Positions 1,038-25,065 of a DNA stretch of 56,491 nucleotides are shown one piece after another (within the stretch, counting starts at the first letter, position 1; every line of letters begins with the position of its first letter). The notes beneath the pieces were generated by a model, which searched no databases, was not told the origin of the DNA, and saw only the letters and a list, made by a program, of their open reading frames with translations. The stretch is from Patescibacteria group bacterium (GTDB taxonomy: Bacteria; Patescibacteriota; Gracilibacteria; UBA1369; UM-FILTER-53-11), in assembly GCA_038062615.1 (NCBI GenBank), contig JBBTWV010000002.1, positions 1-56,491 of the forward strand, read 5' to 3'. The translations under genes and the position numbers were made by a program.

Positions 1038-3349
1038 ATAAAGAATCTACCATACGTCCTGTTTTTCAGCCGGCTGTCTAAAAGGTAGCAGGTTTTTGGT
1101 GTGGAGCTACTGCCCAGTTCTGCTAGGATTTCACGGAACTTGGTGACGGCGCGGGGGAGCGTGTACTGCTCAAAGCCGTTATCAAAAAACTTACTGCGAG
1201 CGCTTAAAATGGGATCATCAGGCGGATCAAAGGGGATTTTTTGAAACACGATCACCTCGAGTTGGTCTTCCACCTCAGGCAGGTGCGGCAGAATTTGGTT
1301 GGTGCTGAGGAGGATGGAGTTTGCCGGATCTTCACAAAAGAGTGCCAAAGATTTTCCCATACCGCCGGATGGACCAATTCCGAGGAGTCGCACATCCAGT
1401 TTTTTCATTTTTGGCGAGAGTGCTTGATACACGGCCTCTACGGCTTTTTTGGAGCTCATAAGGAACAAACTTTTGCCGCGTTTCTGTTCGATAATTTCTA
1501 GAAAAAGTTTAATACAGCGCTTAAAATAGCCCTCGCTGTAGGGGTCCGGAAAATCCTTGGGGATGTGGGTTTGAAGGTTAGACGAGTCCGGCGCTGGCGT
1601 TTCTTTGATTTCTTTCCACGATGAATCAAGCTCTAGAATTTCGCGTATGAGGGCAAAACTTCCGTCGCCGCTTAAGGCAGGACTTTGCAGGACGATATTT
1701 TTAAAGGGCGCTGCGCACTGGTTCCATAATTTTCCAAGAGAAATGGGCGCCGCAGAAAGAGATACTTCATTGGCCCAAGAACTTACCCACTGCACGATAT
1801 TTTCTTGTGGAACGATGGCCGCCAGCAGTTCGTCTTTTTTAGGATGATTGGGGAAATTGGCGAGCGCATCTTGCACGCGTTGCCACGGCACTTCTCGGCG
1901 TGCGGCTTCCGTCAAAAGGGCGTTACCACGGAACCCGCCGCTGTCCACGGAAGAAAAATGCTCGTGAAAAATTCCTAAGAGTCCAAAAAAGAGGGAAGCG
2001 CGATCTCCAAAAATTGGCCGCAAGTCGCTTTCGGTAAAGCGTTTTTTGAGAGCGAAGGTGAGATTGTCTTCAAGCCGGCCGGCGTCTAAAACAATGAGCG
2101 AACGTGGTGTTGGCTCTGTCAGTTTCTCTGCTATTAGGCGTGCCAATCCAAAATGGTGGATGAGAATAATATCTTTGGAGCTGGAATCTTGCAGGGATTT
2201 TTTTACAAAATCGCCCGTGCCTTCGTGGTCCGCAAGCGCATCAAATTTCCCGTATTCCTCGCGCTCTAATGTCAGTTCACTGCGGTCACCCGTAGCGGTT
2301 TCGTCTTTCCAAAGCAGCAGTTTGAGGAGGAATGGAACATCTTCAGCTGGGATTTTCTTGGCGGCCAGCGCTTGTTCTAATTTTTCTGATGAAAGGTAGA
2401 ATTGAGATTCTTTGATCTCACCGATAGAAAGTCCTGCCGCCTGCCTGCCGGTAGGCATGGCCTTTGCCTGCTCCATAATTTGGGTACGCGTGCGCGGCGA
2501 ACTATAAGCAATAATAAGCGGATGATTTTTGAGTTCAGAAAAGGGGATTTGAGACGAGGATTCGAGGAGGATTTTTTCATTATTGAGGAAATTTTTTGTA
2601 ACTTCCTGCGGCCAATAAGGTTTCGCGCAGGCAAGTCCGGTGTGCCCACTCGGGGGCACGGCGTCCTTTGTCCCAGCGGCCAAAGGCGCCTGTGCCTCGG
2701 CTTTGCCAGTCCGCTTCGGCGGACACCATGCTGTCAAAGCCTGCGGCGCTCCCCCTCGGAGCACACACGGACTTGCCTGCGCTTCAAATACCTGTTTCCC
2801 AGCCCAATCACTTTTCGCCAAAATTACTTCCACTTCTTTCCACATTTTTTCCGGAATCTCGCCAATTTTCCCCAGCAAAAATTCAAAAAATTCTACGGTG
2901 GTTTCTGTATCTGCCATGGCACGATGCGAAGGCCTTACTTCCAGCCCGTGCTTTTTCATTAAAACTTCCAGTGCGTACGAGGCTTCTTTCCGCAGCAAAA
3001 TCCGCGCTAAAGAAACGGTGTCAATTTGCGCATTGGGTAAATCAAAATGGCCTCCTCTCAAAAATCCGATATCAAAGGCAATGTTGTGCCCAATAATCGG
3101 CAAATCGCCCATAAATGTCGCAAATTTTTCTTTCACCTCGCTCACCTTTGGCGCGTCCTTCACCATCTCATCGTCAATTCCTGTTAAAAGCTCAACCTCC
3201 TGCGGAATAAGCACCGGTGGCCTTACCAAGCTCTCCAGCCGATCAAGAATTTTCCCGTCCTTCCAAATAAGACAGGCGATTTCCAGGAGGTGATCACGAC
3301 TGGCGTCCAAGCCCGTAGTTTCTGTATCGAGAAATATAAATGGCCCCAT
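1034..3349 (-). CDS. dinG: DnaQ-type 3'-5' exonuclease fused to a DinG/Rad3-like helicase scaffold with degenerate ATPase motifs
   Basis: Exo motifs FLDTETTG, HNIAFDIGFL and HRAMADTETT are in the first ~170 aa. The C-terminus is helicase_C_2-like (VIVFQKIPFDPPDDP). Walker A is replaced by LLESSSQ and DEAH by LDAGR. Confidence 0.8.
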   Translation of the reverse strand: MGPFIFLDTETTGLDASRDHLLEIACLIWKDGKILDRLESLVRPPVLIPQEVELLTGIDDEMVKDAPKVSEVKEKFATFMGDLPIIGHNIAFDIGFLRGGHFDLPNAQIDTVSLARILLRKEASYALEVLMKKHGLEVRPSHRAMADTETTVEFFEFLLGKIGEIPEKMWKEVEVILAKSDWAGKQVFEAQASPCVLRGGAPQALTAWCPPKRTGKAEAQAPLAAGTKDAVPPSGHTGLACAKPYWPQEVTKNFLNNEKILLESSSQIPFSELKNHPLIIAYSSPRTRTQIMEQAKAMPTGRQAAGLSIGEIKESQFYLSSEKLEQALAAKKIPAEDVPFLLKLLLWKDETATGDRSELTLEREEYGKFDALADHEGTGDFVKKSLQDSSSKDIILIHHFGLARLIAEKLTEPTPRSLIVLDAGRLEDNLTFALKKRFTESDLRPIFGDRASLFFGLLGIFHEHFSSVDSGGFRGNALLTEAARREVPWQRVQDALANFPNHPKKDELLAAIVPQENIVQWVSSWANEVSLSAAPISLGKLWNQCAAPFKNIVLQSPALSGDGSFALIREILELDSSWKEIKETPAPDSSNLQTHIPKDFPDPYSEGYFKRCIKLFLEIIEQKRGKSLFLMSSKKAVEAVYQALSPKMKKLDVRLLGIGPSGGMGKSLALFCEDPANSILLSTNQILPHLPEVEDQLEVIVFQKIPFDPPDDPILSARSKFFDNGFEQYTLPRAVTKFREILAELGSSSTPKTCYLLDSRLKNRTYGRFFI
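2625..2782. repeat. 158-bp GC-rich palindromic element with perfect 15-bp terminal inverted repeats, embedded in the dinG-like ORF
   Basis: GCGCAGGCAAGTCCG (2625-2639) is the exact reverse complement of CGGACTTGCCTGCGC (2768-2782). The interior is an imperfect long hairpin that looks much more GC-rich than its flanks. The reading frame stays open. Confidence 0.7.
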
Positions 3350-3355
3350 AGACGA

Positions 3356-3382
3356 GAATCAAGAAGCAGGAATCAAGAAGCA
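3356..3382 (+). repeat. Purine-rich tandem direct repeat GAATCAAGAAGCA x2 (family E copy 1)
   Basis: GAATCAAGAAGCAG GAATCAAGAAGCA. It shares the exact 13-mer CAGGAATCAAGAA (3367-3379) with 41507-41519 on the opposite strand. Confidence 0.55.
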
Positions 3383-3432
3383 AAAATGCTTTCCCCCTCA
3401 GCATTATTCATGTAGAGTGAGGATACCTTTTT

Positions 3433-4959
3433 ATGCAAAAAATACCTAAACGACTTGTTTTACCACTCGTAGTACTTTTCATTTTGGCTTTTGGGTCACT
3501 GCCAATTTTGGCCCAGCTGACGGGCTTTATTGATGTTACGGCGGATCATCCCGATTATTCCGCCATCAGCTATTTGCGTGCACGAGGCATTATTAGCGGC
3601 TACGGCGATGGATCATTTAGACCTTCCGGCCAAATTAATCGTGCTGAATTTATAGCCATTGTGGTAAAAGCAAAAAGCGTAAACACAAATACAGGAACCT
3701 ATAAAAATTGTTTTCAAGATGTGAAACAGGAATGGTTTGCCGATGAAGTTTGCTATGCCAAAGCAAAAGGATGGGTCGTCGGCTATGGAAAAGTATTTTA
3801 TCCAGCACTGCCCGTATCGTATGCACAGGCAGCTGCCATCGCGGCCAAAGCTTTTGGTGGCAACGCTCTCAATATTAATAGAGGACAAGCCGCCCAACTG
3901 ATTTACGAAAACATGCCGAAGACAAATCTTCCTGTGCCACCTGCTGCCTATGTTCCTCCGCCCACACCGCCGGCTCCGGCACCAGTTCCGCCAGTTGTGG
4001 TTGTTCCTCCGCCACCACCTCCGGCTCCACCACCACCAGCTCCTGTCACTACATCGGGAGGTTTTCCTGCTCACGTTTTTGCACCGTACGTAGATGTTTT
4101 GCTTGGCGATTTTGATCAATTTAAATTAGCTCAAAATTCAGACAATATCGGTAAATATATGACATTGGCCTTCATTGTGAGCCGAGGTTGTGAAGCGCAC
4201 TGGGGTGGCATTCTCCCATTGAGCGCGGATACTCCACTTTATAATGATATTGCCGCCTTGCGTGCCAAAGGTGGAGACGTGATTATTTCTTTTGGTGGAG
4301 CCAATGGTATTGAACTCGCCCAAGCCTGCAGCACCGATGATGCACTGCTTGCTCAGTATCAAGCCGTGGTCACAAGGTACGCTCTCAAACGAATTGATTT
4401 TGATATTGAAGGTGCCGCCGTGGCAGATCCCACTTCTCGCGAACGCCGAAATCGCGTTTTAGTGAGACTTAAAGCCGCTAATCCGGGTCTCCAAATTCAA
4501 TACACCTTACCGGTTTTGCCAACGGGTCTTACTAACGGCGTAGCGCTTTTACAAGATGCCGCGGCCAAAGGTTTCGTTCCAGATATCGTGAATATTATGG
4601 CGATGGATTACGGAACCTACTTCTCTAACGACATGGGCAAAAACGCCACGGATGCTATTACCGCCACAGTGGCTCAGCTCAAAACTATTTTTACCGGCAA
4701 GACGGATGCTCAACTCAAAGCCATGGTTGGCGTGACACCGATGATCGGCGCCAATGATGTGGCTCCGGAAGTCTTTACTCTAGCGGATGCCACCACGCTC
4801 CTCAACTTTGCCAATCAAAATGGAACGGCCTTTATTGCTATGTGGTCCGCCAATCGCGATAAACAGTGTACGCAGTCTTGGGATGCGCTCTACTTGTGCA
4901 CCAAGATAACTCAGCAGCCATTTGATTTCGCCAAGGTCTTTAAGGCCTTTACGCAGTAG
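3433..4959 (+). CDS. Secreted SLH-domain protein with proline-rich linker and C-terminal GH18 (chitinase/endo-beta-N-acetylglucosaminidase-like) domain
   Basis: N-terminal signal/TM segment. SLH-like motif GIISGYGDGSFRPSGQINRAEF. A PPPPPAPPPP linker. GH18 catalytic DxDxE in RIDFDIEG, plus MAMDYG. Confidence 0.8.
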   Translation: MQKIPKRLVLPLVVLFILAFGSLPILAQLTGFIDVTADHPDYSAISYLRARGIISGYGDGSFRPSGQINRAEFIAIVVKAKSVNTNTGTYKNCFQDVKQEWFADEVCYAKAKGWVVGYGKVFYPALPVSYAQAAAIAAKAFGGNALNINRGQAAQLIYENMPKTNLPVPPAAYVPPPTPPAPAPVPPVVVVPPPPPPAPPPPAPVTTSGGFPAHVFAPYVDVLLGDFDQFKLAQNSDNIGKYMTLAFIVSRGCEAHWGGILPLSADTPLYNDIAALRAKGGDVIISFGGANGIELAQACSTDDALLAQYQAVVTRYALKRIDFDIEGAAVADPTSRERRNRVLVRLKAANPGLQIQYTLPVLPTGLTNGVALLQDAAAKGFVPDIVNIMAMDYGTYFSNDMGKNATDAITATVAQLKTIFTGKTDAQLKAMVGVTPMIGANDVAPEVFTLADATTLLNFANQNGTAFIAMWSANRDKQCTQSWDALYLCTKITQQPFDFAKVFKAFTQ

Positions 4960-15955: not shown

Positions 15956-17773
15956 CTATTTTCTCTTTCTACGCTTTTTTTCCAAAGCAAGCTGGTCTTC
16001 TTGTTCTCTTCTGCGAATTTCTGCCCACGCTTCACTCGCTATTCCCTCTATTGGGAGCCTATCACCACGATTAATATGGGAATTACTAGAAAATCGGTAA
16101 CTCACCCTATTAAGTTCTTCCATAGTGAGATGGGTTTCAATAATATGGGTTTCCCAAAGATGATAGGCAACCGGAAAACTTCGCGTCCTCAAGAGTACAC
16201 CTAAAAGTGTCTTGTCAGCCTCCTCATCTGAATTTGCACAAGCTCTGATTCTGGCAACCGTGTTATCTATAAAAACGTTGTCGTGGTAACCGTCTGCCAA
16301 TTCTGCGGCAAGGTCGCGAGTTTTTTGCCATCCTCGTTCTTGGGCTTCTCGTCTCTGCACATCTTTGTGAGCTTCAAGAGATTTTGCGCGTCTTTGCAAA
16401 ATACTCGTAACATCTAATCCTCTTGCTCCACATGCTGTAACTGCTTCTTGCACAACACGTTCACTCGCCGCATACCGAGCGATTTCCGGCAACAATTCAT
16501 TCGTCAAAACGGCAGGGTAAATATTTTGAAGCACCATCCAAACCACTTCGCATGTTTCATCATCATCGCAATCTGCAAAAAAACTTTTCAGCATATGCAA
16601 ATTATCGGCACCTTGGCCAGTACACTCTATAATGGTGCCTAAAAGGTCGCACGCGGTAGCAGGGTGAGTAGCACGGATGAATTGTTTTACCAAGAAAGCA
16701 AGATGTATACCGGCATGTTCTGCGGTAGCATTTGCATACAATCTTCTGTTGATTGCCATATCATAATCAAAGGTCGGTTCGGTTCTTATTCTTTCGGCAC
16801 GGGCAAGGATAAAACTTCGGTAAACTGGAGATGCATCTCTCAAAACTCTTGTAACTTCCCTTTTACCGGTTCTCACTAATGCAGCACTTTTACTCACTGC
16901 CGCAACAGCTCTGTCGCCGGTATCATCCGCAACTGTCATAATATGAGGCGTTTCATCTGGAGCATCTCCCGGAGGATCCAGTCCCTGTTCGTAAAAACTT
17001 TCTTGGTAAGCAACCTCATCTTGCAAAGCTAAAAGATCTTTAAGCCGTGGAAAGTCCTGCATGTCACTGCCAACTTTTCTCAAAATTTGTTCGCCAACCT
17101 CTCTTTGTTCCTCATCAGGAAGTTGGAATTTATATTGTACTTTAATGGTGCCAAGTCTAGGACTCTCACCCAAATTGAGCGTTTCTTCAATCTCTTTCAA
17201 TAAATCAACAAATGCTTGAATCAGACGCTCTTCAAAATCTCTTCCTGGGGCTTTAGATTCCATGAGCATTCCCATGCTTATAACTGCCTGCGGAGGAACA
17301 GAAGTGTCACGTTTTACTGTTACCAGTTCTACAAATTTTGCTGGTATGGCGGTGGCTAAATCGCCTGCTTGGCGCTCACCGATGATATTGATAAGTTTTT
17401 CCAGAGTTATAATATCGTGTGTGGACAATACTTTCCCCCCTCTTTTGTCCCATTCAACCGTTTCGGTTTTTTCCATGGGTAAATGGAGTATCTCGCTTAT
17501 AGCGTAGTGTCCAGCAAGTTCACTGAACACAACACCATAATCAATTATGAGTAAGTCTATTTTTCGCATGGTTTCTCTATATGCCTCTAAAGAAGTCGGA
17601 TGTTTTTTTTGCTGTGCAACGAGTACTTGTATCTTGGTGGTAATTTCAACAATATTGCGGAGTGCCAGCATTAAGTACTCCAGCAGCAGTTGGAGCCGGT
17701 CGGGTATCTGATTTTCAAAAATGACTAAACGAGTCGCTCCAGATGGCGGGCTTTTATCGAGGCTTTTTCCCAT
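15956..17773 (-). CDS. Orphan 605-aa protein, cassette copy 1 (paralog of 21073-22731); function unknown
   Basis: Long ORF with a leaderless-type promoter. It shares conserved blocks with its paralog (TVEWDK, QAFVDLLK, YQESF, LHMLK.FF, ETCE.VW, FIDNTVARIRAC). I recognise no known catalytic motif. Confidence 0.75.
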   Translation of the reverse strand: MGKSLDKSPPSGATRLVIFENQIPDRLQLLLEYLMLALRNIVEITTKIQVLVAQQKKHPTSLEAYRETMRKIDLLIIDYGVVFSELAGHYAISEILHLPMEKTETVEWDKRGGKVLSTHDIITLEKLINIIGERQAGDLATAIPAKFVELVTVKRDTSVPPQAVISMGMLMESKAPGRDFEERLIQAFVDLLKEIEETLNLGESPRLGTIKVQYKFQLPDEEQREVGEQILRKVGSDMQDFPRLKDLLALQDEVAYQESFYEQGLDPPGDAPDETPHIMTVADDTGDRAVAAVSKSAALVRTGKREVTRVLRDASPVYRSFILARAERIRTEPTFDYDMAINRRLYANATAEHAGIHLAFLVKQFIRATHPATACDLLGTIIECTGQGADNLHMLKSFFADCDDDETCEVVWMVLQNIYPAVLTNELLPEIARYAASERVVQEAVTACGARGLDVTSILQRRAKSLEAHKDVQRREAQERGWQKTRDLAAELADGYHDNVFIDNTVARIRACANSDEEADKTLLGVLLRTRSFPVAYHLWETHIIETHLTMEELNRVSYRFSSNSHINRGDRLPIEGIASEAWAEIRRREQEDQLALEKKRRKRK

Positions 17774-17917
17774 AGGGTGTATTAAACACTAAATTGGCTA
17801 ATTAGTCAACTGGTCGTTTAACCTGTTAAATCTCGTCAAAATAGATCACCTGTGCAGAATTTATTGACGCTCAAACGCATAAGGGAGTAACATAAGGGTG
17901 TAATATTATTACACCCT
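17774..17917. promoter_or_regulatory. Divergent promoter/operator region of cassette copy 1
   Basis: Minus strand: TTGACT (17809-17804), 17 nt, TTTAAT (17786-17781), 7 nt, ATG. AGGG(T/A)GTAA-like motif at 17774-17783, 17882-17891 and 17895-17904, and inverted at 17908-17917. The last two form a 10-bp perfect palindrome that abuts the RHH ATG. Confidence 0.55.
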
Positions 17918-18253
17918 ATGAAGACCCCTTACCGTAAAAAAGTAAAATCAAAATACGCTATTAAGCTGAAGCATATTCCCGTTCTGCCTCCGCTTGGGTC
18001 GGGGTTGTTGTTAGGTAAGAAAGGGCCGCGCAAAAAAGTAAATTTCATGGTGGATCTCAATATTTTAGAAGGCATGAAAATTTTTGTGCCTTTTGGAGAT
18101 AGAAGCGACTTTGTGAATGATGCGGTGGCTTATGCGCTCAAAAAGGCTGCTCAGCGAGAAGCCATGGAATTTATGGATAAAGTTCGGAAAGAAGGGAAGT
18201 TACAGATGACCGACAAGGAGATTAAAGAAGCGATTAATTATGGCCGAAAATAA
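17918..18253 (+). CDS. Ribbon-helix-helix (CopG/VapB-like) antitoxin, copy 1
   Basis: RHH signature KKVNFMVDLNILEGM...GDRSDFVNDAVAYAL. Overlaps the downstream PIN gene by 14 nt. Confidence 0.8.
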   Translation: MKTPYRKKVKSKYAIKLKHIPVLPPLGSGLLLGKKGPRKKVNFMVDLNILEGMKIFVPFGDRSDFVNDAVAYALKKAAQREAMEFMDKVRKEGKLQMTDKEIKEAINYGRK

Positions 18254-18680
18254 ATCTCTCTTCGTCGTAGATGCCTCGGTTCTTTTGAAGTGGTATCTCA
18301 AAGAAGAAAATGATCAAGAACCCGCTTTGCAGCTGCAAACAGACTACCACTACGATAAGATTTCTCTCGCGATTCCGCACTATGCTTGGTCGGAGGTATT
18401 GAATACATTGGGAAGAAAAAAATCCTTTGATGAAGTACTTGCCTATTTTTCGCGTTATTTAGCCTTTGAAATACAGGAATATTCCATCACGCTTGAAATT
18501 GCAGCCGTGGCCATTGAACTTATGGAAAAGTTCCCTAATATAACCTTTTACGATGCCGGTTATCATGCTTTGGCGCTCCAAGAAGGAGGTACTTTTGTAA
18601 CCGCTGATGAAAAATATTTCCAAAAAACAAAAAAGCATGGCGGCATCATGCTCTTGAAAGACTACGGCAAGAAACGCTAG
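18240..18680 (+). CDS. vapC: PIN-domain (VapC-like) toxin, copy 1
   Basis: LFVVDASVLLKW, FYDAGYHALA and TADEKY supply the acidic PIN residues. 146 aa, translationally coupled to the RHH gene. Confidence 0.85.
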   Translation: MAENKSLFVVDASVLLKWYLKEENDQEPALQLQTDYHYDKISLAIPHYAWSEVLNTLGRKKSFDEVLAYFSRYLAFEIQEYSITLEIAAVAIELMEKFPNITFYDAGYHALALQEGGTFVTADEKYFQKTKKHGGIMLLKDYGKKR

Positions 18681-18700
18681 ACTGCCGCAGATGGGTAAGG

Positions 18701-18841
18701 AGTTCTCTAACAGGCCAAGCCGCAGCTCGAGCCAAGGCGAAGATGCCGAATCAAGAAGATTCGGCTTGGCTAAGCAATTAACTCGCCCAAATGATGCTAA
18801 GGCATCAAGCAGAGCAAGCGGCGATGAGGGCGAAACTTCGG
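18701..18841 (+). repeat. Family B nested-hairpin repeat (B1), inserted into a duplicated pyrE 5' fragment
   Basis: TAACAGGCCAAGCCG...CGGCTTGGCTAAGCAATTAACTCGCCC...GAGGGCGAAAC matches the reverse complement of B2-B4. It is absent from the otherwise identical site at 24035/24036. Confidence 0.7.
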
Positions 18842-18874
18842 CTCAAGAAATCGCCGTGTCTCCTTTGGAAAATT

Positions 18875-20317
18875 ATGAATCCTATTTCTCTCGCCGATTT
18901 TAAAACGGCCCATGAGCCAAGAGCTTACGTTAATTCGAGCATTCGCTTTCATCATGAATTCTCGCAGCGCGAACGTCTTAAAGCCGCGCAAAAAGCCGGC
19001 TGGAATGTTTTTCAATTTCCTTCAGAAATGCTGAAAGGAGGTGATCTGCTCTCCGATTCGGGAACAACGACCATGACGGTGGAACAAGTTGCCGCGATGT
19101 TTCTTGGCGATGAAGCTTACGGAAGCAATTACGGCTATTTCCAGCTTCTTGAAACTTTTGAAGAAGTATTCGGAATTCCTTCCCAACAAACTGAAGTTTT
19201 TTTCTTCCATCAAGGCCGGGCGGCCGAACATGCTCTCTTTTCACAAATTGGAAAATTTGGCGAGCACCTCATTATTCCCAGCAACGGTCATTTTGATACC
19301 ACCCGTGCCAACATAGAAAATAATCGCATTGCGGCAAAAGATTGTTTTTCGCCACAACTTCATTCAAAGCAAACGGCACCTTTTAAAGGAAATATGGATT
19401 TGGCGGTTTTAGAGCGGATTCTGCAGGAAAATTCCCAAAATATTCCTCTTGTTTATGTCACTATCACCAACAACAGCGGCGGCGGGCAGCCGGTTTCGCT
19501 GGCCAATATAAAGGCTGTAAGAAAACTTTGCGACCACTATGCTAAGCCGTTATTTTTGGATGCCTGCCGTTTTGCCGAAAACTCTTGGTTTATTAAAGCT
19601 CGCGAAAAAGAATACGCCGGCAGAACCGTCCGAAATATTGTAAAAGAAATTTTCGCCCTCTGCGACGGATTTACCATCTCTCTCAAAAAGGACGGCTTGG
19701 CCAACATGGGAGGTGCGCTTGTCATCAAAAAAAAGAGTCCGCTTGTAGGTGAGCATCCGCGCCTTTTAAATGATATTCGGGATCATCAAATTCTCACCGA
19801 AGGTCATCCCACCTACGGCGGCCTTTCCGGCCGTGACATTATGACGCTTTGTGTGGGGCTTAAAACGGCCGTTACCGAGCAGTATCTCAAAAGCCGCATC
19901 GGTTTGGTGCATGAATTCGGACGCATGCTTAAAAAGGCAAAAGTTCCCGTACTGGAACCTTTTGGCGGACATGCCATATATTTAGATATGGACAAATTTT
20001 TTGTTAAAACCAAGCATCAGCGTGCGGATTTTGGCGGTATTGCTTTCACCGGTTTGTTGCTCCTCAAGGGCGTTCGTCTTTGCGAACTCGGCGCTTTTGC
20101 TTTTGGGGAAAATCATCCTCATAATTTTGTCCGCGCGGCGGTTCCCCGCAATAAATACGAACTGGAAGATCTTGCCTATGTTGCCGATTGCATCCAGGGG
20201 CTTTATGAAAAACGCCGCGAAATTCCGCGGGCCGTTCCGGTATATGGCCGCGACTTAACACTTCGCCATTTTAAGGCGAGGTTTAAGCTGGAGGCTTTTT
20301 CCTCATTAGTTAGCTGA
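18875..20317 (+). CDS. Beta-eliminating lyase (tryptophanase / tyrosine phenol-lyase family), PLP-dependent
   Basis: DLLSDSGTTTM, GDEAYGS, HQGRAAEH, and a PLP-lysine context SLKKDGLANMGGAL resembling TnaA. The tracked ORF start (18791) runs through repeat B1, so the ATG at 18875 (MNPISLADF) is preferred. Confidence 0.85.
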   Translation: MNPISLADFKTAHEPRAYVNSSIRFHHEFSQRERLKAAQKAGWNVFQFPSEMLKGGDLLSDSGTTTMTVEQVAAMFLGDEAYGSNYGYFQLLETFEEVFGIPSQQTEVFFFHQGRAAEHALFSQIGKFGEHLIIPSNGHFDTTRANIENNRIAAKDCFSPQLHSKQTAPFKGNMDLAVLERILQENSQNIPLVYVTITNNSGGGQPVSLANIKAVRKLCDHYAKPLFLDACRFAENSWFIKAREKEYAGRTVRNIVKEIFALCDGFTISLKKDGLANMGGALVIKKKSPLVGEHPRLLNDIRDHQILTEGHPTYGGLSGRDIMTLCVGLKTAVTEQYLKSRIGLVHEFGRMLKKAKVPVLEPFGGHAIYLDMDKFFVKTKHQRADFGGIAFTGLLLLKGVRLCELGAFAFGENHPHNFVRAAVPRNKYELEDLAYVADCIQGLYEKRREIPRAVPVYGRDLTLRHFKARFKLEAFSSLVS

Positions 20318-21072: not shown

Positions 21073-22731
21073 TCAGGAAGCTTTTGGCTTTCGCCTGTCA
21101 ATTTCCGCACTTGCTTCTTTCCATATCTCATCGCACGGATGCTTACCACCCCAAGGATTAAATCTTTCTGTGACTTTATCAAGTTCTTCATCGCTCATGT
21201 GTGATTCAATGATATGCTTTGACCACAAATACCAGGCCGTGTACAGGTTGGTATGCAGCAATACATTTACAAGAATTTTTCTGGCTTCTTCCTCGGAAGT
21301 TGTGCAAGCCCTTATTCTTGCCACCGTGTTATCAATGAATTTTCCGTCAGGTTCCTTGTCCCTCAACTCGGCGGTAAGGTCGCGAATTTTTTTATAATTT
21401 CTATCTCGAGCTTCCTGGCTCTTAACCTCACGGTGTGCCACAAGTGATCCTGCACGTTTTTCTAAAATGCTCTCGGCGTCCAGTCCTCTTGTCCGACATT
21501 CGGCGATGGCGGCCTGGGCAACGCGATCGCTCGTGGTATATAGGGCTATCTCTGCCAACAGCTCGTTCGTCAAAACAGGCTCATAATTTTGCAATTCATC
21601 CCAGACTGCCTCACACGTTTCTAGATCTTCACACCAAACAAAGAAAGTTTTTAGCATGTGCAGAAAGTCCGTGCCTTCATCAAAAGATTCCATGATCATG
21701 TGGAGGAGCGCACATGCGGAATAGGCATGGGTCGCGGCATGGAACTGGTCTACTAAGAATGTCCGATGTAAGCCTACATGCTCCTCGGTTGCTGTGGCAT
21801 GCCATTCTCTCGCTACTCCTCGATAATAATCAAAGGTGATTTCAGTTCTGATGCTTTGTGCACGGGCTAACATGAACCTTTGATATGGAGGAGATACGGC
21901 GGCGAGCACTTCAAGGACTTGTCTTCTCCCATGATTCACCAAGGCAGAGCTTTTATCCACAACCGCAAGAGCGCTCTCGCCAACTCCTTCCGTCATGGAT
22001 GCAATATCGGCGGTTTCATAAGTGGGCTCCGCAGGAGGTTCCATCCCTTGCTCCAAAAAACTTTCCTGGTAGGTAAGGCTATCTCTCAAATCCAAAAGAT
22101 CGCCTATCCTTGGAAATTCCTCAGTATTGCTACCAACTTTTTGTAAAATTCTTTCGGCAACGCGTCTTCGCTCATCATCATCCATTTTAAATTTATAGCG
22201 CGTTTCTATAATTCCTATCGCCGGTCTCCTACTATGGAGGTTGTTCTCAATCTGCTTGAGTAAATCAACAAATGCTTGAGTGAGCCGTTCCGCAAAATCT
22301 TTTTCTGGAGTGTAAGGTTTCATATCCATATCGGTGGATAGTGGTCTAAGCTTTTGGCGGTGCACAGCCAAGTCCACAAAGTCTTGCGGTGCATGGACCG
22401 TAAGGTTGGAAACCTGCTGCTCACTTATTAATTTCAAAACAGTTCCGATAGTTGAAATATCTTTTGTAGATATTACTTTTTCGCCTATTTTGTCCCATTC
22501 AACGGTTCGAATTTCTTCCATTTGCAAATTCAGTATTTCGCCAACAGCGTAATGTCCCACCAGCATGCTCATTTCGAGGCTATAATCAGCTATTAGGTTA
22601 TTAATTTCCAATATGGTTTTTTGATATGCAGTTAAGGTAGTTGGGTGTTCTCTTTGCTCTGTTACAAGTTTTTGTGCGGTCGTAGAGATTTCGATGAGTT
22701 TTCTCATCCCTCTTATTAAATAATTCAGCAA
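21073..22731 (-). CDS. Orphan protein, cassette copy 2 (paralog of 15956-17773), N-terminally disrupted by a frameshift
   Basis: 552-aa ORF from an internal TTG. The homologous ATG is at 22781 in another frame. One extra C in the C5 run (22755-22759) would restore MDKPSGETPQIPDKLEPLLNYL, which aligns with copy 1. Confidence 0.7.
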   Translation of the reverse strand: MLNYLIRGMRKLIEISTTAQKLVTEQREHPTTLTAYQKTILEINNLIADYSLEMSMLVGHYAVGEILNLQMEEIRTVEWDKIGEKVISTKDISTIGTVLKLISEQQVSNLTVHAPQDFVDLAVHRQKLRPLSTDMDMKPYTPEKDFAERLTQAFVDLLKQIENNLHSRRPAIGIIETRYKFKMDDDERRRVAERILQKVGSNTEEFPRIGDLLDLRDSLTYQESFLEQGMEPPAEPTYETADIASMTEGVGESALAVVDKSSALVNHGRRQVLEVLAAVSPPYQRFMLARAQSIRTEITFDYYRGVAREWHATATEEHVGLHRTFLVDQFHAATHAYSACALLHMIMESFDEGTDFLHMLKTFFVWCEDLETCEAVWDELQNYEPVLTNELLAEIALYTTSDRVAQAAIAECRTRGLDAESILEKRAGSLVAHREVKSQEARDRNYKKIRDLTAELRDKEPDGKFIDNTVARIRACTTSEEEARKILVNVLLHTNLYTAWYLWSKHIIESHMSDEELDKVTERFNPWGGKHPCDEIWKEASAEIDRRKPKAS

Positions 22732-22781
22732 TGGCTCAAGCTTGTCTGGGATTTGGGGGTTTCACCAGATGGCTTGTCCAT

Positions 22782-22935
22782 AAGGTGCATATTAAACACT
22801 AAATTAACAGATAAGTCAACAGGTTCGTAACCTGTTATGTCTGATGGTAGGTTTTAAAACTGGGTTGGCGACTCAGAATCAATTGATGTTCAAAATCGTA
22901 TGGAGTAACATAAGGGTGTAACAATCTTACTCCCT
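22782..22935. promoter_or_regulatory. Divergent promoter/operator region of cassette copy 2
   Basis: Conserved TTGACT (22819-22814), 17 nt, TTTAAT (22796-22791). Operator-like motifs at 22902-22909 and 22913-22922, and inverted at 22926-22935. Confidence 0.5.
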
Positions 22936-23268
22936 ATGAACACCCCCCGCAAAAAAGTAAAAGCCAAATACGCTATCAAACTCAAACATTTTCCTGTTTG
23001 TCCTCAATTTGGATCTGCGTTTTTTGGCTCAGGGAAAAGACCTCGGAAGAAAGTAAATTTTATGGTGAATATGGATCTTTTGGAAGCCATAACATTTTTG
23101 GTCCCTTCGGGTAGCAGGAGCGAATTTGTAAATGAAGCCGTGGAAGAAGCTCTCAGGGATTTTGCCCGAAGAAAAGCAATAGAGGCGATGGATGAATTTC
23201 GTAGGAAAAATAAATGGAAAATGACGGACGAAGAAATTCGTAAAGCTATCAATTATGGTCGCAAATAG
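22936..23268 (+). CDS. Ribbon-helix-helix (CopG/VapB-like) antitoxin, copy 2
   Basis: Paralog of 17918-18253 (KKVNFMVNMDLLEAI...GSRSEFVNEAVEEAL). Intact. Confidence 0.8.
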   Translation: MNTPRKKVKAKYAIKLKHFPVCPQFGSAFFGSGKRPRKKVNFMVNMDLLEAITFLVPSGSRSEFVNEAVEEALRDFARRKAIEAMDEFRRKNKWKMTDEEIRKAINYGRK

Positions 23269-23695
23269 GCCGCTCTTCATTGTTGATGCCTCTGTGATTT
23301 TAAAGTGGTTCCTCTTTGAGCCGGATTCCCAGGAACAGTCACTCCATCTCCGGCGAGATTATTTTGAGAGGAAGGTGGAGCTAGCTGTTCTTAACTATAC
23401 TTATGCTGAAATTTTGAATACTTTAGGGCGAATTCTCCCCCAAGAGAAAGCGCTTTCGGCCTTTTCTCAGCTGTTGATGTATCAATTGCAGTAATACCAT
23501 ACCACTATGGAATTAGCTTCGATGGGTTGCGAACTCATGAAGAATTTTTCTGGTGTCACCTTTTATGATTCTGGTTATCATGCCTTGGCTCTACAGGAAG
23601 GTGGCACATTTATAACCGCCGATGAAAAATATTTCCAAAAAACAAAGAAACAAGGCGGGGTAATGCTCTTGAAAGACTACGGCAAGAAACGCTAG
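23255..23695 (+). pseudogene. vapC: PIN-domain toxin, copy 2, interrupted by an in-frame TAA at 23492-23494
   Basis: The two ORFs 23255-23494 and 23507-23695 are in the same frame and align collinearly with copy 1. The TAA aligns with GAA (Glu) of copy 1. Confidence 0.75.
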
Positions 23696-24011
23696 GAGCT
23701 GTACGCCTTTTGCAATAATTATTTTTTATTTAATAATCCACAGGCGATAGCAAAACCTGCGCTTATTATGGCTATTCCTATGCTTGCACTTGCTGGTGCA
23801 TTTTCCCAAAGCCAAAGCGGAGCCGTTACTATATTTGCTGCAAAAAATATTGAAAGGAAAAAATAAATTTTGTGCATAAATTTAATGAAATAAAATACAA
23901 CAGTTGGTATTTTATCCTTTTTTACTATGGCGTACAACATCCGCGCCACTCGTGCCTAGAATCCAGATCTGCTAGAATACAACCATCCCAAGCTCGTTAT
24001 GCTAACAGCTC
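23696..24011. mobile_element. 316-bp insertion with 7-bp terminal inverted repeats (GAGCTGT/ACAGCTC) flanked by duplicated CTAG
   Basis: Copy 1 reads ...GAAACGCTAG|ACTGCCGCAGATG. Copy 2 reads ...GAAACGCTAG|GAGCTGT...ACAGCTC|CTAG|ACTGCCGCAGATG. Confidence 0.55.
23719..23949 (-). CDS. Small two-TM hydrophobic protein carried on the 316-bp insertion
   Basis: 76-aa ORF with two hydrophobic helices (IYFFLSIFFAANIVTAPLWLW; IGIAIISAGFAIACGLL) in a region that looks AT-rich by eye. Confidence 0.45.
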   Translation of the reverse strand: MARMLYAIVKKDKIPTVVFYFIKFMHKIYFFLSIFFAANIVTAPLWLWENAPASASIGIAIISAGFAIACGLLNKK

Positions 24012-24025
24012 CTAGACTGCCGCAG

Positions 24026-24676
24026 ATGAACAAGGCTCAAGAAATCGCCAAAATCCTACTCGACATCGGGGCTGTGAAGGTGAGCATGGATCCGCCGTTT
24101 ACGTGGACCTCTGGCATAAAATCTCCGGTATATTGTGATAACCGCAAACTTATTTCGCATCCCAAAGAGCGGCAGGCGGTGGTAAAAGCATTCGCTGATT
24201 TGGTGCGCGAAAAAAAACTGGATCCGGAATATATTGGCGGAACCGCCACGGCGGCCATTCCTTGGGCGGCATTTTTGGCTTATGAGCTCAACTTACCCAT
24301 GGTGTATATTCGTCCGGAAAAAAAGGAACACGGTGCGGGCCGGCAAGTGGAAGGGGATCTGCCGCCTGGCAAACGCGTCCTCATTGTGGAGGATCTTATT
24401 TCTACCGGTGGATCTTCGGTAAATGCGGCTAAAGCCGTACAGCAAGAATGCCAAGGCGTGGTTACGGATGTGCTTGCGATTGTTACTTACGAATTAGATG
24501 AAGCTCAGCAAAAATTCCAGGAATCCGGTTTGCATATTTCTACGCTTACGAATTTTTCAAATATTATCGGTTTGGCGCTTGAGCGCGGGAATATTACACA
24601 AGAACAATGGGGAAAAATTTTGGAATTTAGAAAAAATCCAAGAAGTTGGTTTTCAGTTTTTGGGCTGGAATCATAG
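24026..24676 (+). CDS. pyrE: Orotate phosphoribosyltransferase
   Basis: PRPP-binding motif VLIVEDLISTGGS and TSGIKSPVYCDNR. The ATG at 24026 (MNKAQEIA) is preferred over the tracked start at 23999, which lies inside the insertion. Confidence 0.9.
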   Translation: MNKAQEIAKILLDIGAVKVSMDPPFTWTSGIKSPVYCDNRKLISHPKERQAVVKAFADLVREKKLDPEYIGGTATAAIPWAAFLAYELNLPMVYIRPEKKEHGAGRQVEGDLPPGKRVLIVEDLISTGGSSVNAAKAVQQECQGVVTDVLAIVTYELDEAQQKFQESGLHISTLTNFSNIIGLALERGNITQEQWGKILEFRKNPRSWFSVFGLES

Positions 24677-24690
24677 GGACCTCTCGTATT

Positions 24691-25065
24691 TTACCCTGGA
24701 ACATTTTCACTATCAGAAAATGCTGGTGTGCCAGGCAGATCTTCTGTGTCTATATTTTGTTCTCGCCGGAGATGGGGAACTGTTGTAGGCAGGTTTGGAG
24801 GCAGCGTTGGTGATGGCGATGGTTGCGGTCCAAAACCGGATGATGGTGTCTGCGGCGGCTTAAAATGGTCCCATGCGTGTGCGGCACCCAGTGCGGTTCC
24901 AGCACTAAATAATATAAGAGCCAGGGTATTTCTTCGGACCCAATTCCCAATATCACGAAGAGGTGTTGCACGCTTAACACGCTGCAATATGGGTGATTTT
25001 CGGTGTAACACGCCGTATGGTAACGCGTGGCGCTCCACCTCAAGGGCTGAGTTCCTTCCCTCCAT
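24691..25065 (-). CDS. Hypothetical single-TM, proline-rich protein
   Basis: 124-aa ORF with the TM helix LALILFSAGTALGAAHAW and a P/S/T-rich tail. Competing ORFs overlap it on both strands, so this is uncertain. Confidence 0.4.
   Translation of the reverse strand: MEGRNSALEVERHALPYGVLHRKSPILQRVKRATPLRDIGNWVRRNTLALILFSAGTALGAAHAWDHFKPPQTPSSGFGPQPSPSPTLPPNLPTTVPHLRREQNIDTEDLPGTPAFSDSENVPG

Follow-up and report, generated by a model that had tools for sequence, protein, structure and literature searches.

We analysed a window of 56,491 nt, the whole stretch taken from contig JBBTWV010000002.1 (assembly GCA_038062615.1) of a Patescibacteria group bacterium, and found that a unit of 316 bp (positions 23696–24011) has been inserted precisely, at a CTAG tetranucleotide, between a vapC-like gene for a PIN toxin and pyrE, the gene for orotate phosphoribosyltransferase. 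The insert has short inverted ends, is flanked by a duplicated CTAG, and is missing at a paralogous site in the same window and at four orthologous sites in related contigs. We consider it probable that the insert is a non-autonomous element similar to miniature transposable elements with inverted repeats (MITEs), inserted by a transposase that acted in trans. Mobile insertion cassette (MIC) would be the better name if the longest open reading frame (ORF) of the insert were a real gene; this ORF, with a hydrophobic product of 76 amino acids (aa), is most likely incidental.

The stretch from 23692 to 24015 reads CTAG-GAGCTGT-(302 bp)-ACAGCTC-CTAG. The left target copy (CTAG, 23692–23695; the empty sites hold a single CTAG) overlaps the end of the vapC-like gene, its last three bases (23693–23695) doubling as the TAG stop codon of that gene. 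It is followed by the left terminal inverted repeat GAGCTGT (23696–23702, plus strand), and the right terminal inverted repeat ACAGCTC (24005–24011, plus strand, recognised by its sequence match to the left end) is followed by the right target copy (24012–24015, read from the sequence). The length between the two CTAGs is 316 bp, or 324 bp with both of them included. An insertion of this length with 7-bp inverted ends and a CTAG duplication had been proposed in an initial annotation of the window; every sequence statement made there was rechecked and is correct, and both the coordinates and the empty sites described below agree with it. The 11-mer CTAGGAGCTGT occurs only twice in the window, at the two ends of the insert, the two occurrences being reverse complements of each other. 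Because CTAG is itself palindromic, the junctions can be read in three ways: as a 4-bp duplication with perfect inverted ends of 7 bp, as a TA duplication with perfect ends of 8 bp, or as an inverted repeat of 11 bp that includes CTAG. In size, the element would measure 316 bp if its ends are GAGCTGT and 4 bp were duplicated, or 318 bp if its ends are GGAGCTGT and TA was duplicated; 8 of the 10 outermost bases of the left end match the opposite end.

The insert has a G+C content of 37–38% (37.7%, as compared to 46.0% for the window) with a local minimum of 32%, as the initial annotation had implied in calling it AT-rich, and third-position G+C (0.28 as compared to 0.45 in host genes) also belongs to its foreign composition. 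Only two ORFs lie within it, one of 76 aa on the minus strand and one of 47 aa on the plus strand, and neither has a family match; the unit is too small for a transposase gene, as had been stated of its small protein. A small size (the class of roughly 50–500 bp), the lack of a transposase gene, terminal inverted repeats, and a target duplication with a matching empty site are among the features by which MITEs are recognised, and the insert has these, its inverted repeats being short for the class.

The direction of the event was settled by comparison with empty sites. The vapC-like gene belongs to a module that is duplicated in the window, and the junction after the intact vapC of copy 1 (18671–18693) is uninterrupted, as had been claimed, and reads GAAACG-CTAG-ACTGCCGCAG-ATG; the paralogous empty site is CTAG-ACTGCCGCAG-ATG (18677–18693, plus strand), and ACTGCCGCAG is found in the window at positions 18681 and 24016 only. 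The two copies are old, diverged paralogues: their vapC ends are 76% identical across 212 nt, and their large proteins are 50% identical in amino acids. For the orthologous site we used four related Peregrinibacteria-like contigs (L015, L028, L029 and L030); an empty junction specific to copy 2 would read GGGGTAATGCTCTTGAAAGACTACGGCAAGAAACGCTAGACTGCCGCAGATGAACAAGG. L015 is the closest relative (its PyrE shares 92% amino-acid identity with that of the window), and its vapC–pyrE junction is empty, reads AAACGCTAG|ACTGCCGCAGATG, and agrees with copy 1 to the base; its PIN gene is intact (156 aa), and the stop codon runs into the pyrE leader (...AAGAAACGCTAG|ACTGCCGCAGATGAATAAGGCTCAAGAAG). In the other three contigs, a vapC homologue stands directly before pyrE with no insert, the spacers being 1, 9 and 32 nt. 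Since vapC and pyrE are adjacent in all four relatives, the adjacency is ancestral, and 316 bp plus one CTAG were gained in the lineage of the window. Judged from these alignments, the event is a precise, lineage-specific insertion of 316 bp with a 4-bp duplication. The empty alleles that the initial annotation had sought are thus at hand in L015, with three more relatives lacking the insert between vapC and pyrE, and the unit, which might have turned out to be conserved at this position, is absent from the relatives' sites. Four independent assemblies (the window, an ENA assembly of another sample, and two Logan assemblies) agree exactly on the filled site, which rules out an assembly artefact. 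An assembly with records labelled Hain_PNK108, a label that we take to denote the Hainich groundwater site, shares an identical stretch with the window.

Once the borders are taken from the empty sites, the probability of meeting a perfect 7-bp inverted repeat beside the duplication by chance is about 4^-7 = 6e-5, and it stays below 1e-3 after allowing for a few alternative registers. The target itself is rare: the window contains 41 CTAG sites as compared to 111 expected from its dinucleotide content (ratio 0.37), related loci contain 0–8 sites each, and a random insertion point would land in CTAG with a probability of about 7e-4. Since CTAG is depleted in the window, a chance hit on it is unlikely. 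Among all pairs of CTAGs that are 60–2500 bp apart in the window and in eight related loci, this pair is the only one whose inner ends match.

Taken together, the exactness of the insertion, the duplication of a short palindrome as target, the inverted ends and the foreign composition most likely make up the anatomy of a non-autonomous insertion made by a transposase. We propose that a DDE transposase supplied in trans would have inserted the unit 10 nt upstream of pyrE, at the CTAG where the last codon of the vapC-like gene meets its TAG stop, and that staggered cuts of the target followed by gap repair would have duplicated either the whole CTAG (as for IS5-type elements) or its central TA (as for IS630-type elements). 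The GAGCTGT/ACAGCTC ends may be what remains of the sites that the transposase bound and cleaved, and the low G+C content, the foreign codon usage and the fact that no relative was found suggest that the DNA came from outside the host genome. We infer a transposase as the agent, its insertion sequence (IS) family, and the former existence of other copies. From one copy, the IS5-type and IS630-type readings cannot be separated because CTAG is palindromic.

Both types have known counterparts. IS5 duplicates a 4-bp target with the consensus C(A/T)A(G/A), often CTAG or CTAA (PMC11677980), and MITEPsy1 of Pseudomonas syringae, a MITE of 100 nt that is proven to be mobile, duplicates CTAG or YTAA (PMC3189936). 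The insert is like the IS5/MITEPsy1 group in being small and transposase-free, in its terminal inverted repeats and, if the duplication is read as 4 bp, its CTAG duplication, and in ends that begin with G-purine-G. It differs from the group in the length of its inverted ends (7–8 bp as compared to 16–18 bp), in lacking a known cognate IS, in being single-copy as far as seen, and in its host, a Peregrinibacteria-like bacterium of the Candidate Phyla Radiation (CPR), and from MITEPsy1 also in being three times longer and holding an ORF. Ends of IS5-family elements start with GA, GG or GAG, and by this analogy the GAG start of the ends seems to favour the 4-bp, IS5-type reading slightly over the TA reading. 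As for the second type, ISY100 duplicates TA (PMC2170065), and IS630 inserts at TA within CTAG according to the title of Tenzen and Ohtsubo 1991 (cited in PMC2170065). An empty CTAG and a filled C-TA-[GGAGCTGT...ACAGCTCC]-TA-G are what a MITE of the IS630/Tc1/mariner kind is expected to leave when TA is duplicated inside CTAG. Ends in the IS630/Tc1/mariner family often begin with CAGT; those of the insert do not, and no IS630-type transposase was found in the window. MICs, finally, are passenger genes bounded by inverted repeats without a transposase (PMC3129680). The insert shares with them the inverted ends around a possible passenger ORF and the missing transposase, and differs in that its passenger is a single orphan ORF of 52–76 aa whose function is unsupported. 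Known MICs carry recognisable genes and long ends of known IS. A limited literature search on Peregrinibacteria combined with transposase and insertion sequence returned nothing.

Several results weigh against a MITE-like element. The inverted ends are short (7–8 bp perfect, 8 of 10 bases matching, and no likeness further in), typical MITE inverted ends being 15–30 bp long, and family searches of the window proteins found no transposase gene in the 56-kb window. The 56-kb contig holds no second copy of the insert, which says little in either direction, given that this contig is all of the organism's genome that the DNA-level search covered. Plasmid and phage records contain no copy of it. The end-gap-end pattern TAGGAGCTGT-N(287-317)-ACAGCTCCTA matched at 10 loci when 185,579 species-representative genomes were scanned, at 8 in the JGI metagenomes and at 1 in IMG/VR, and none of the matches in these three collections shows internal similarity to the insert. 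About 17 matches were estimated to arise by chance in the species-representative genomes (10 observed), and matches to the insert ends are chance at this end sequence and length. Two Logan contigs (L002 and L003) have their start precisely k-1 (30 nt) ahead of the divergence of the paralogues and cross both insert borders unbranched; since these contigs break at 31-nt repeats yet run through the borders, a second copy with identical ends at comparable abundance would be absent from the two samples. Overall, the initial annotation had suggested a search for other copies of the 316-bp unit or its ends, and none turned up in the genome, metagenome, viral, plasmid and phage collections. Its proposal of a MITE-like insertion therefore stands as far as the anatomy and the empty sites are concerned, and lacks further copies and a cognate transposase. 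Probably the insert is a non-autonomous element of an already known type, for which multi-copy status and the cognate transposase are incomplete.

Most of the pattern matches sit inside long ORFs, and one conserved Nitrosotalea/Nitrosopumilales gene accounts for eight of them. Two others are a long perfect palindrome and a pair of inverted repeats around rpsS. The palindrome (L025, JGI Ga0256838_1011312, about 1386–1723) is perfect over about 340 bp, each arm being about 150 bp long and carrying the 10-mer, to which alone it owes its detection; it is a foldback element or else arose as an artefact of assembly. At the other locus (L013, about 3260–3640 of JASHTH010000370.1, a metagenome-assembled genome of Acidobacteriaceae), CTAG-rich inverted repeats, AGCTAGAAGCTAGTAGCTAACGGCTAGGAGCTGT and its inverted counterpart, bracket a putative S19 gene; the gene looks like that of ribosomal protein S19, judged by eye from the N-terminal sequence, and for a core gene such intergenic surroundings are odd.

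Among the pattern matches, only L020 looks like a real element. This contig (JGI Ga0210395_10002100) contains at 928–1237 an element of 310 bp with imperfect inverted ends of 32 nt, whose arms are 88% complementary, and CTAG flanks the element. Over their outermost 14 nt (CTAGGAGCTGTACG), its ends have the same sequence as the left end of the insert in the window, the L020-type end sequence being CTAGGAGCTGTACGG. The element lies between the TAG stop of a gene for a LacI-type regulator and a sodium:solute symporter gene, whose ATG is 9 nt further on, a junction of the same kind as the vapC–pyrE junction in the window. Its interior is G+C-rich and unrelated to the insert, and it comes from a high-G+C organism. 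Blastn searches of the element and its end against plasmid records gave nothing useful. As a further point on the side against, 10 of the 14 common bases were forced by the scan, and the remaining four have a chance of about 5% over about 12 independent matches, so that the link to L020 is suggestive only.

The same mobile element could instead owe its interest to its cargo. On this account, the insert would be a MIC carrying a functional gene for a two-helix membrane peptide (like a type I toxin, a holin or an immunity protein), perhaps under antisense control from a promoter-like site at the left end on the plus strand. The ORF in question (23719–23949, minus strand) has a GTG start, 76 aa and two hydrophobic segments, and its status as a gene is doubtful; a version of 52 aa with an ATG start (P0001, 23719–23877, minus strand) was accepted by one gene caller. 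The frame described in the initial annotation is present and open, with Kyte-Doolittle windows above 1.7 at residues 28–48 and above 1.8 at residues 53–73, and the two clear hydrophobic segments have lysines at either end. It spans 231 of the 316 bp, and only 2.1% of dinucleotide shuffles of the insert give an ORF of at least 76 aa. The AT-rich sequence before its start resembles the start context of genuine genes of this genome, in which Shine-Dalgarno sites are rare; since only 4 of 40 genes in the window have such a site, we dropped its lack as an argument against the ORF. In addition, a sigma-70-like site on the plus strand (23709–23737) would give an antisense RNA.

On the other side, the 76-aa product has no homologue among 5.8 billion clustered proteins (word-indexed search) or 1.84 billion representatives (full phmmer search), no family match in Pfam, PHROGs, NCBIfam or PADLOC, and no relative in viral contigs (tblastn-based). 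A line for NhaC in the NCBIfam output (E = 0.014, 14 bits as compared to a cut-off of 370) was set aside as hydrophobic noise. The codon-usage score of the ORF (-0.02) falls within the distribution of spurious ORFs and below all 142 of 142 real windows of 76 codons, and the ORF is not called as a gene in three of the four assemblies. ORFs of at least 52 aa arise in 20% of the shuffles, hydrophobic ORFs are the default product of a T-rich strand, and promoter-like sites are as numerous as expected from shuffles. We therefore regard functional cargo as unlikely, and the toxin, holin or immunity gene suggested in the initial annotation found no support, for want of a homologue and a family, with spurious-like codon usage, and with no gene call in three of four assemblies. 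With type I toxin-antitoxin loci the insert has in common a small hydrophobic peptide ORF, a compact AT-rich locus and an opposite-strand promoter-like site, and it differs in that the ORF has two predicted helices instead of the usual one, lacks homology to known toxin families, and would be paired with an antisense RNA that is predicted only. We know of no type I toxin-antitoxin locus that is bounded by inverted ends with target duplications, and membership in this class found no support, there being no family match, no Rfam hit, and no more promoter-like sites than in shuffles. A bolder version, in which the insert would be a self-contained mobile cassette among the smallest of its kind, whose CTAG-targeting ends carry a working toxin- or holin-like gene for a two-helix membrane peptide, and in which L020 would be the second member of a cross-phylum family that prefers TAG stops at tight junctions, restores the stop and is able to rewire the downstream gene (here pyrE), strikes us as improbable.

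It is also quite unlikely that no transposase was involved and that the insert is a captured DNA fragment bounded by CTAG, brought in by cutting and ligation or by break repair (through a CTAG-specific restriction enzyme or microhomology-mediated repair). Ligation of any CTAG-cut fragment into an opened CTAG site would yield CTAG-X-CTAG, the unit is apparently a single-copy orphan, its inverted ends are very short, and no transposase is nearby. Capture leaves unexplained, however, the perfect 7-bp inverted repeat beside both CTAGs (about 6e-5), and such an enzyme would also have cut the two CTAGs inside the insert (23956 and 23972); moreover, L020 has an equal 14-nt end on an element that is clearly bounded by inverted repeats.

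If the two ends of the insert were joined, they would form a perfect 18-bp palindrome, ACAGCTC-CTAG-GAGCTGT, which has the layout of a classical recombinase site, a 4-bp core between two inverted arms, and the core is directly repeated on either side of the insert in the manner of attL and attR. Integration of a small circular element by site-specific recombination, with the crossover in the CTAG core, is nonetheless very improbable: the chromosomal site has only the 4-bp core, its arms (AGAAACG and ACTGCCG) being unlike ACAGCTC and GAGCTGT, no recombinase gene is found in the unit or the window, and a transposon circle would have its ends abutted just as well. A DNA circle of about 320 bp is also sterically unfavourable. 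We give least credence to an ancestral presence of the 316 bp with later deletion between the CTAGs, in copy 1 as well as in the relatives, a reading that the outgroups effectively refute: the 4-bp direct repeat could mediate slippage and the inverted repeat could bring the repeats together, but an identical precise deletion would be needed independently in copy 1 and L015, the unit is also missing from L028, L029 and L030 (vapC–pyrE spacers of 1–33 bp), and its composition is foreign to the genome.

Other element classes were tried and rejected. An IS481-type 6-bp duplication (NCTAGN) does not fit, as the flanks show no 6-bp repeat (GCTAGG versus CCTAGA); an integron gene cassette does not fit the borders CTAG|GAGCTGT and ACAGCTC|CTAG, which have no GTTRRRY core and no attC core; and for an IS200/IS605-type element the borders are unfit and the hairpins are not subterminal as expected. 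At the RNA level, Rfam gave no match at E ≤ 1 across 22700–24700. The fold of the insert has z-scores of -2.9 and -3.2, which seem to be due in good part to the 11-bp terminal stem. An internal AT-rich imperfect palindrome (23890–23915; ATAAAATAC..GTATTTTAT, followed by CCTTTTTT on the plus strand), identified by self-match and in the centroid fold, is too weak for a terminator; the terminator scan made no call there and found no terminator-like site in the insert.

The contig is chromosomal, and its assignment to a Peregrinibacteria-like CPR bacterium follows the names that homologues of its pyrE and vapC bear. As for the surrounding genes, the window contains a cluster for pyrimidine biosynthesis (carA, pyrB, pyrC, pyrD, a pyrK-like gene, pyrE and pyrF), and then ksgA, the genes for a P-type ATPase and TrmD, and translation genes, among them those for L4, EF-Tu and EF-G; in more distant relatives the order is pyrD, pyrK-like gene, beta-eliminating lyase, pyrE, pyrF. 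Three components form the duplicated module: a large orphan protein encoded on the minus strand, an antitoxin, and the PIN toxin of the vapC-like gene. Copy 1 (15956–18680) lies before the lyase gene and copy 2 (21073–23695) between the lyase gene and pyrE. The vapC of copy 1 (18240–18680) is intact (Pfam PIN match, E = 5.6e-13). The copy-2 gene (23255–23695, plus strand), which has the insert at its stop codon, contains a single in-frame TAA (23492–23494) where copy 1 has GAA and is split into ORFs of 79 and 62 aa; given this TAA, it is a pseudogene, a decaying toxin gene beside the insertion. The large paralogous proteins (605 aa at 15956–17773 and 552 aa at 21073–22731, both on the minus strand) are 50% identical and lie divergently beside each vapBC pair. 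Neither has a match in Pfam or PADLOC, and the one of 552 aa has none in NCBIfam either; the large protein that adjoins vapBC in L015 is unrelated to both. Just upstream of the copy-1 antitoxin gene lies a perfect 21-bp palindrome (GGGTGTAATATTATTACACCC, 17896–17916), which from its sequence is likely an operator, and its copy-2 counterpart (GGGTGTAACAATCTTACTCCC, 22914–22934) is degenerate, which fits the decay of the copy-2 toxin-antitoxin module. Copy 1 also retains a relic of the pyrE start, with ACTGCCGCAGATG at 18681–18693, GGCTCAAGAAATCGCC at 18840–18855, and about 141 extra bases in frame between them; the relic (18681–18903) is an ORF of 70 aa that begins with M-G-K, continues with about 47 residues rich in Ser, Arg and Glu, and then reads AQEIA... 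It follows that the old duplication took in the 5' end of pyrE and that the extra sequence was added later.

Between the pyrK-like gene and pyrE, the gene content differs from contig to contig (window, L016, L029) and comprises, variously, toxin-antitoxin pairs, a gene with a FecR domain, an orphan of 319 aa and the orphan large proteins. L029 also has a Fic/HTH pair and a nucleotidyltransferase immediately downstream of pyrE. The pyr cluster has the look of a local hot spot where accessory genes gather. We note that a Shine-Dalgarno-like motif precedes 4 of the 40 genes checked, that many starts come after T/C-rich or AT-rich sequence, and that some genes of the window have a TATAAT-like motif 10–20 nt before the ATG, which suggests that leaders are short or that initiation does not depend on Shine-Dalgarno sites.

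The gene most directly concerned is pyrE (24026–24676, plus strand), whose ATG is 10 nt past the right CTAG and which has been displaced by 320 bp. In the relatives, the pyrE ATG is 1–33 nt past the vapC stop, so that co-transcription with vapBC, or a promoter inside vapC, is likely. The insert may therefore separate pyrE from an upstream promoter, as the initial annotation had suggested, and it may carry promoters of its own: conjecturally, from sequence, TGCTAGAAT (23970–23978, plus strand) is an extended -10-like motif directed toward pyrE, 47 nt before the ATG. The consensus promoter scan was silent on it because the motif has no -35.

The practical value of these results is limited until a second copy or a transposase is found. 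The insert illustrates how a short orphan ORF can arrive with foreign DNA. If our assignment is true, the locus would provide a cleanly dated transposition, with the empty and the filled site both in hand, in a CPR bacterium. It would also mean that elements targeting CTAG can enter the gap that separates one gene's stop codon from the following start codon and spare both genes, and that such an insertion would be a route to uncouple or re-promote a gene of an operon, e.g. pyrE.

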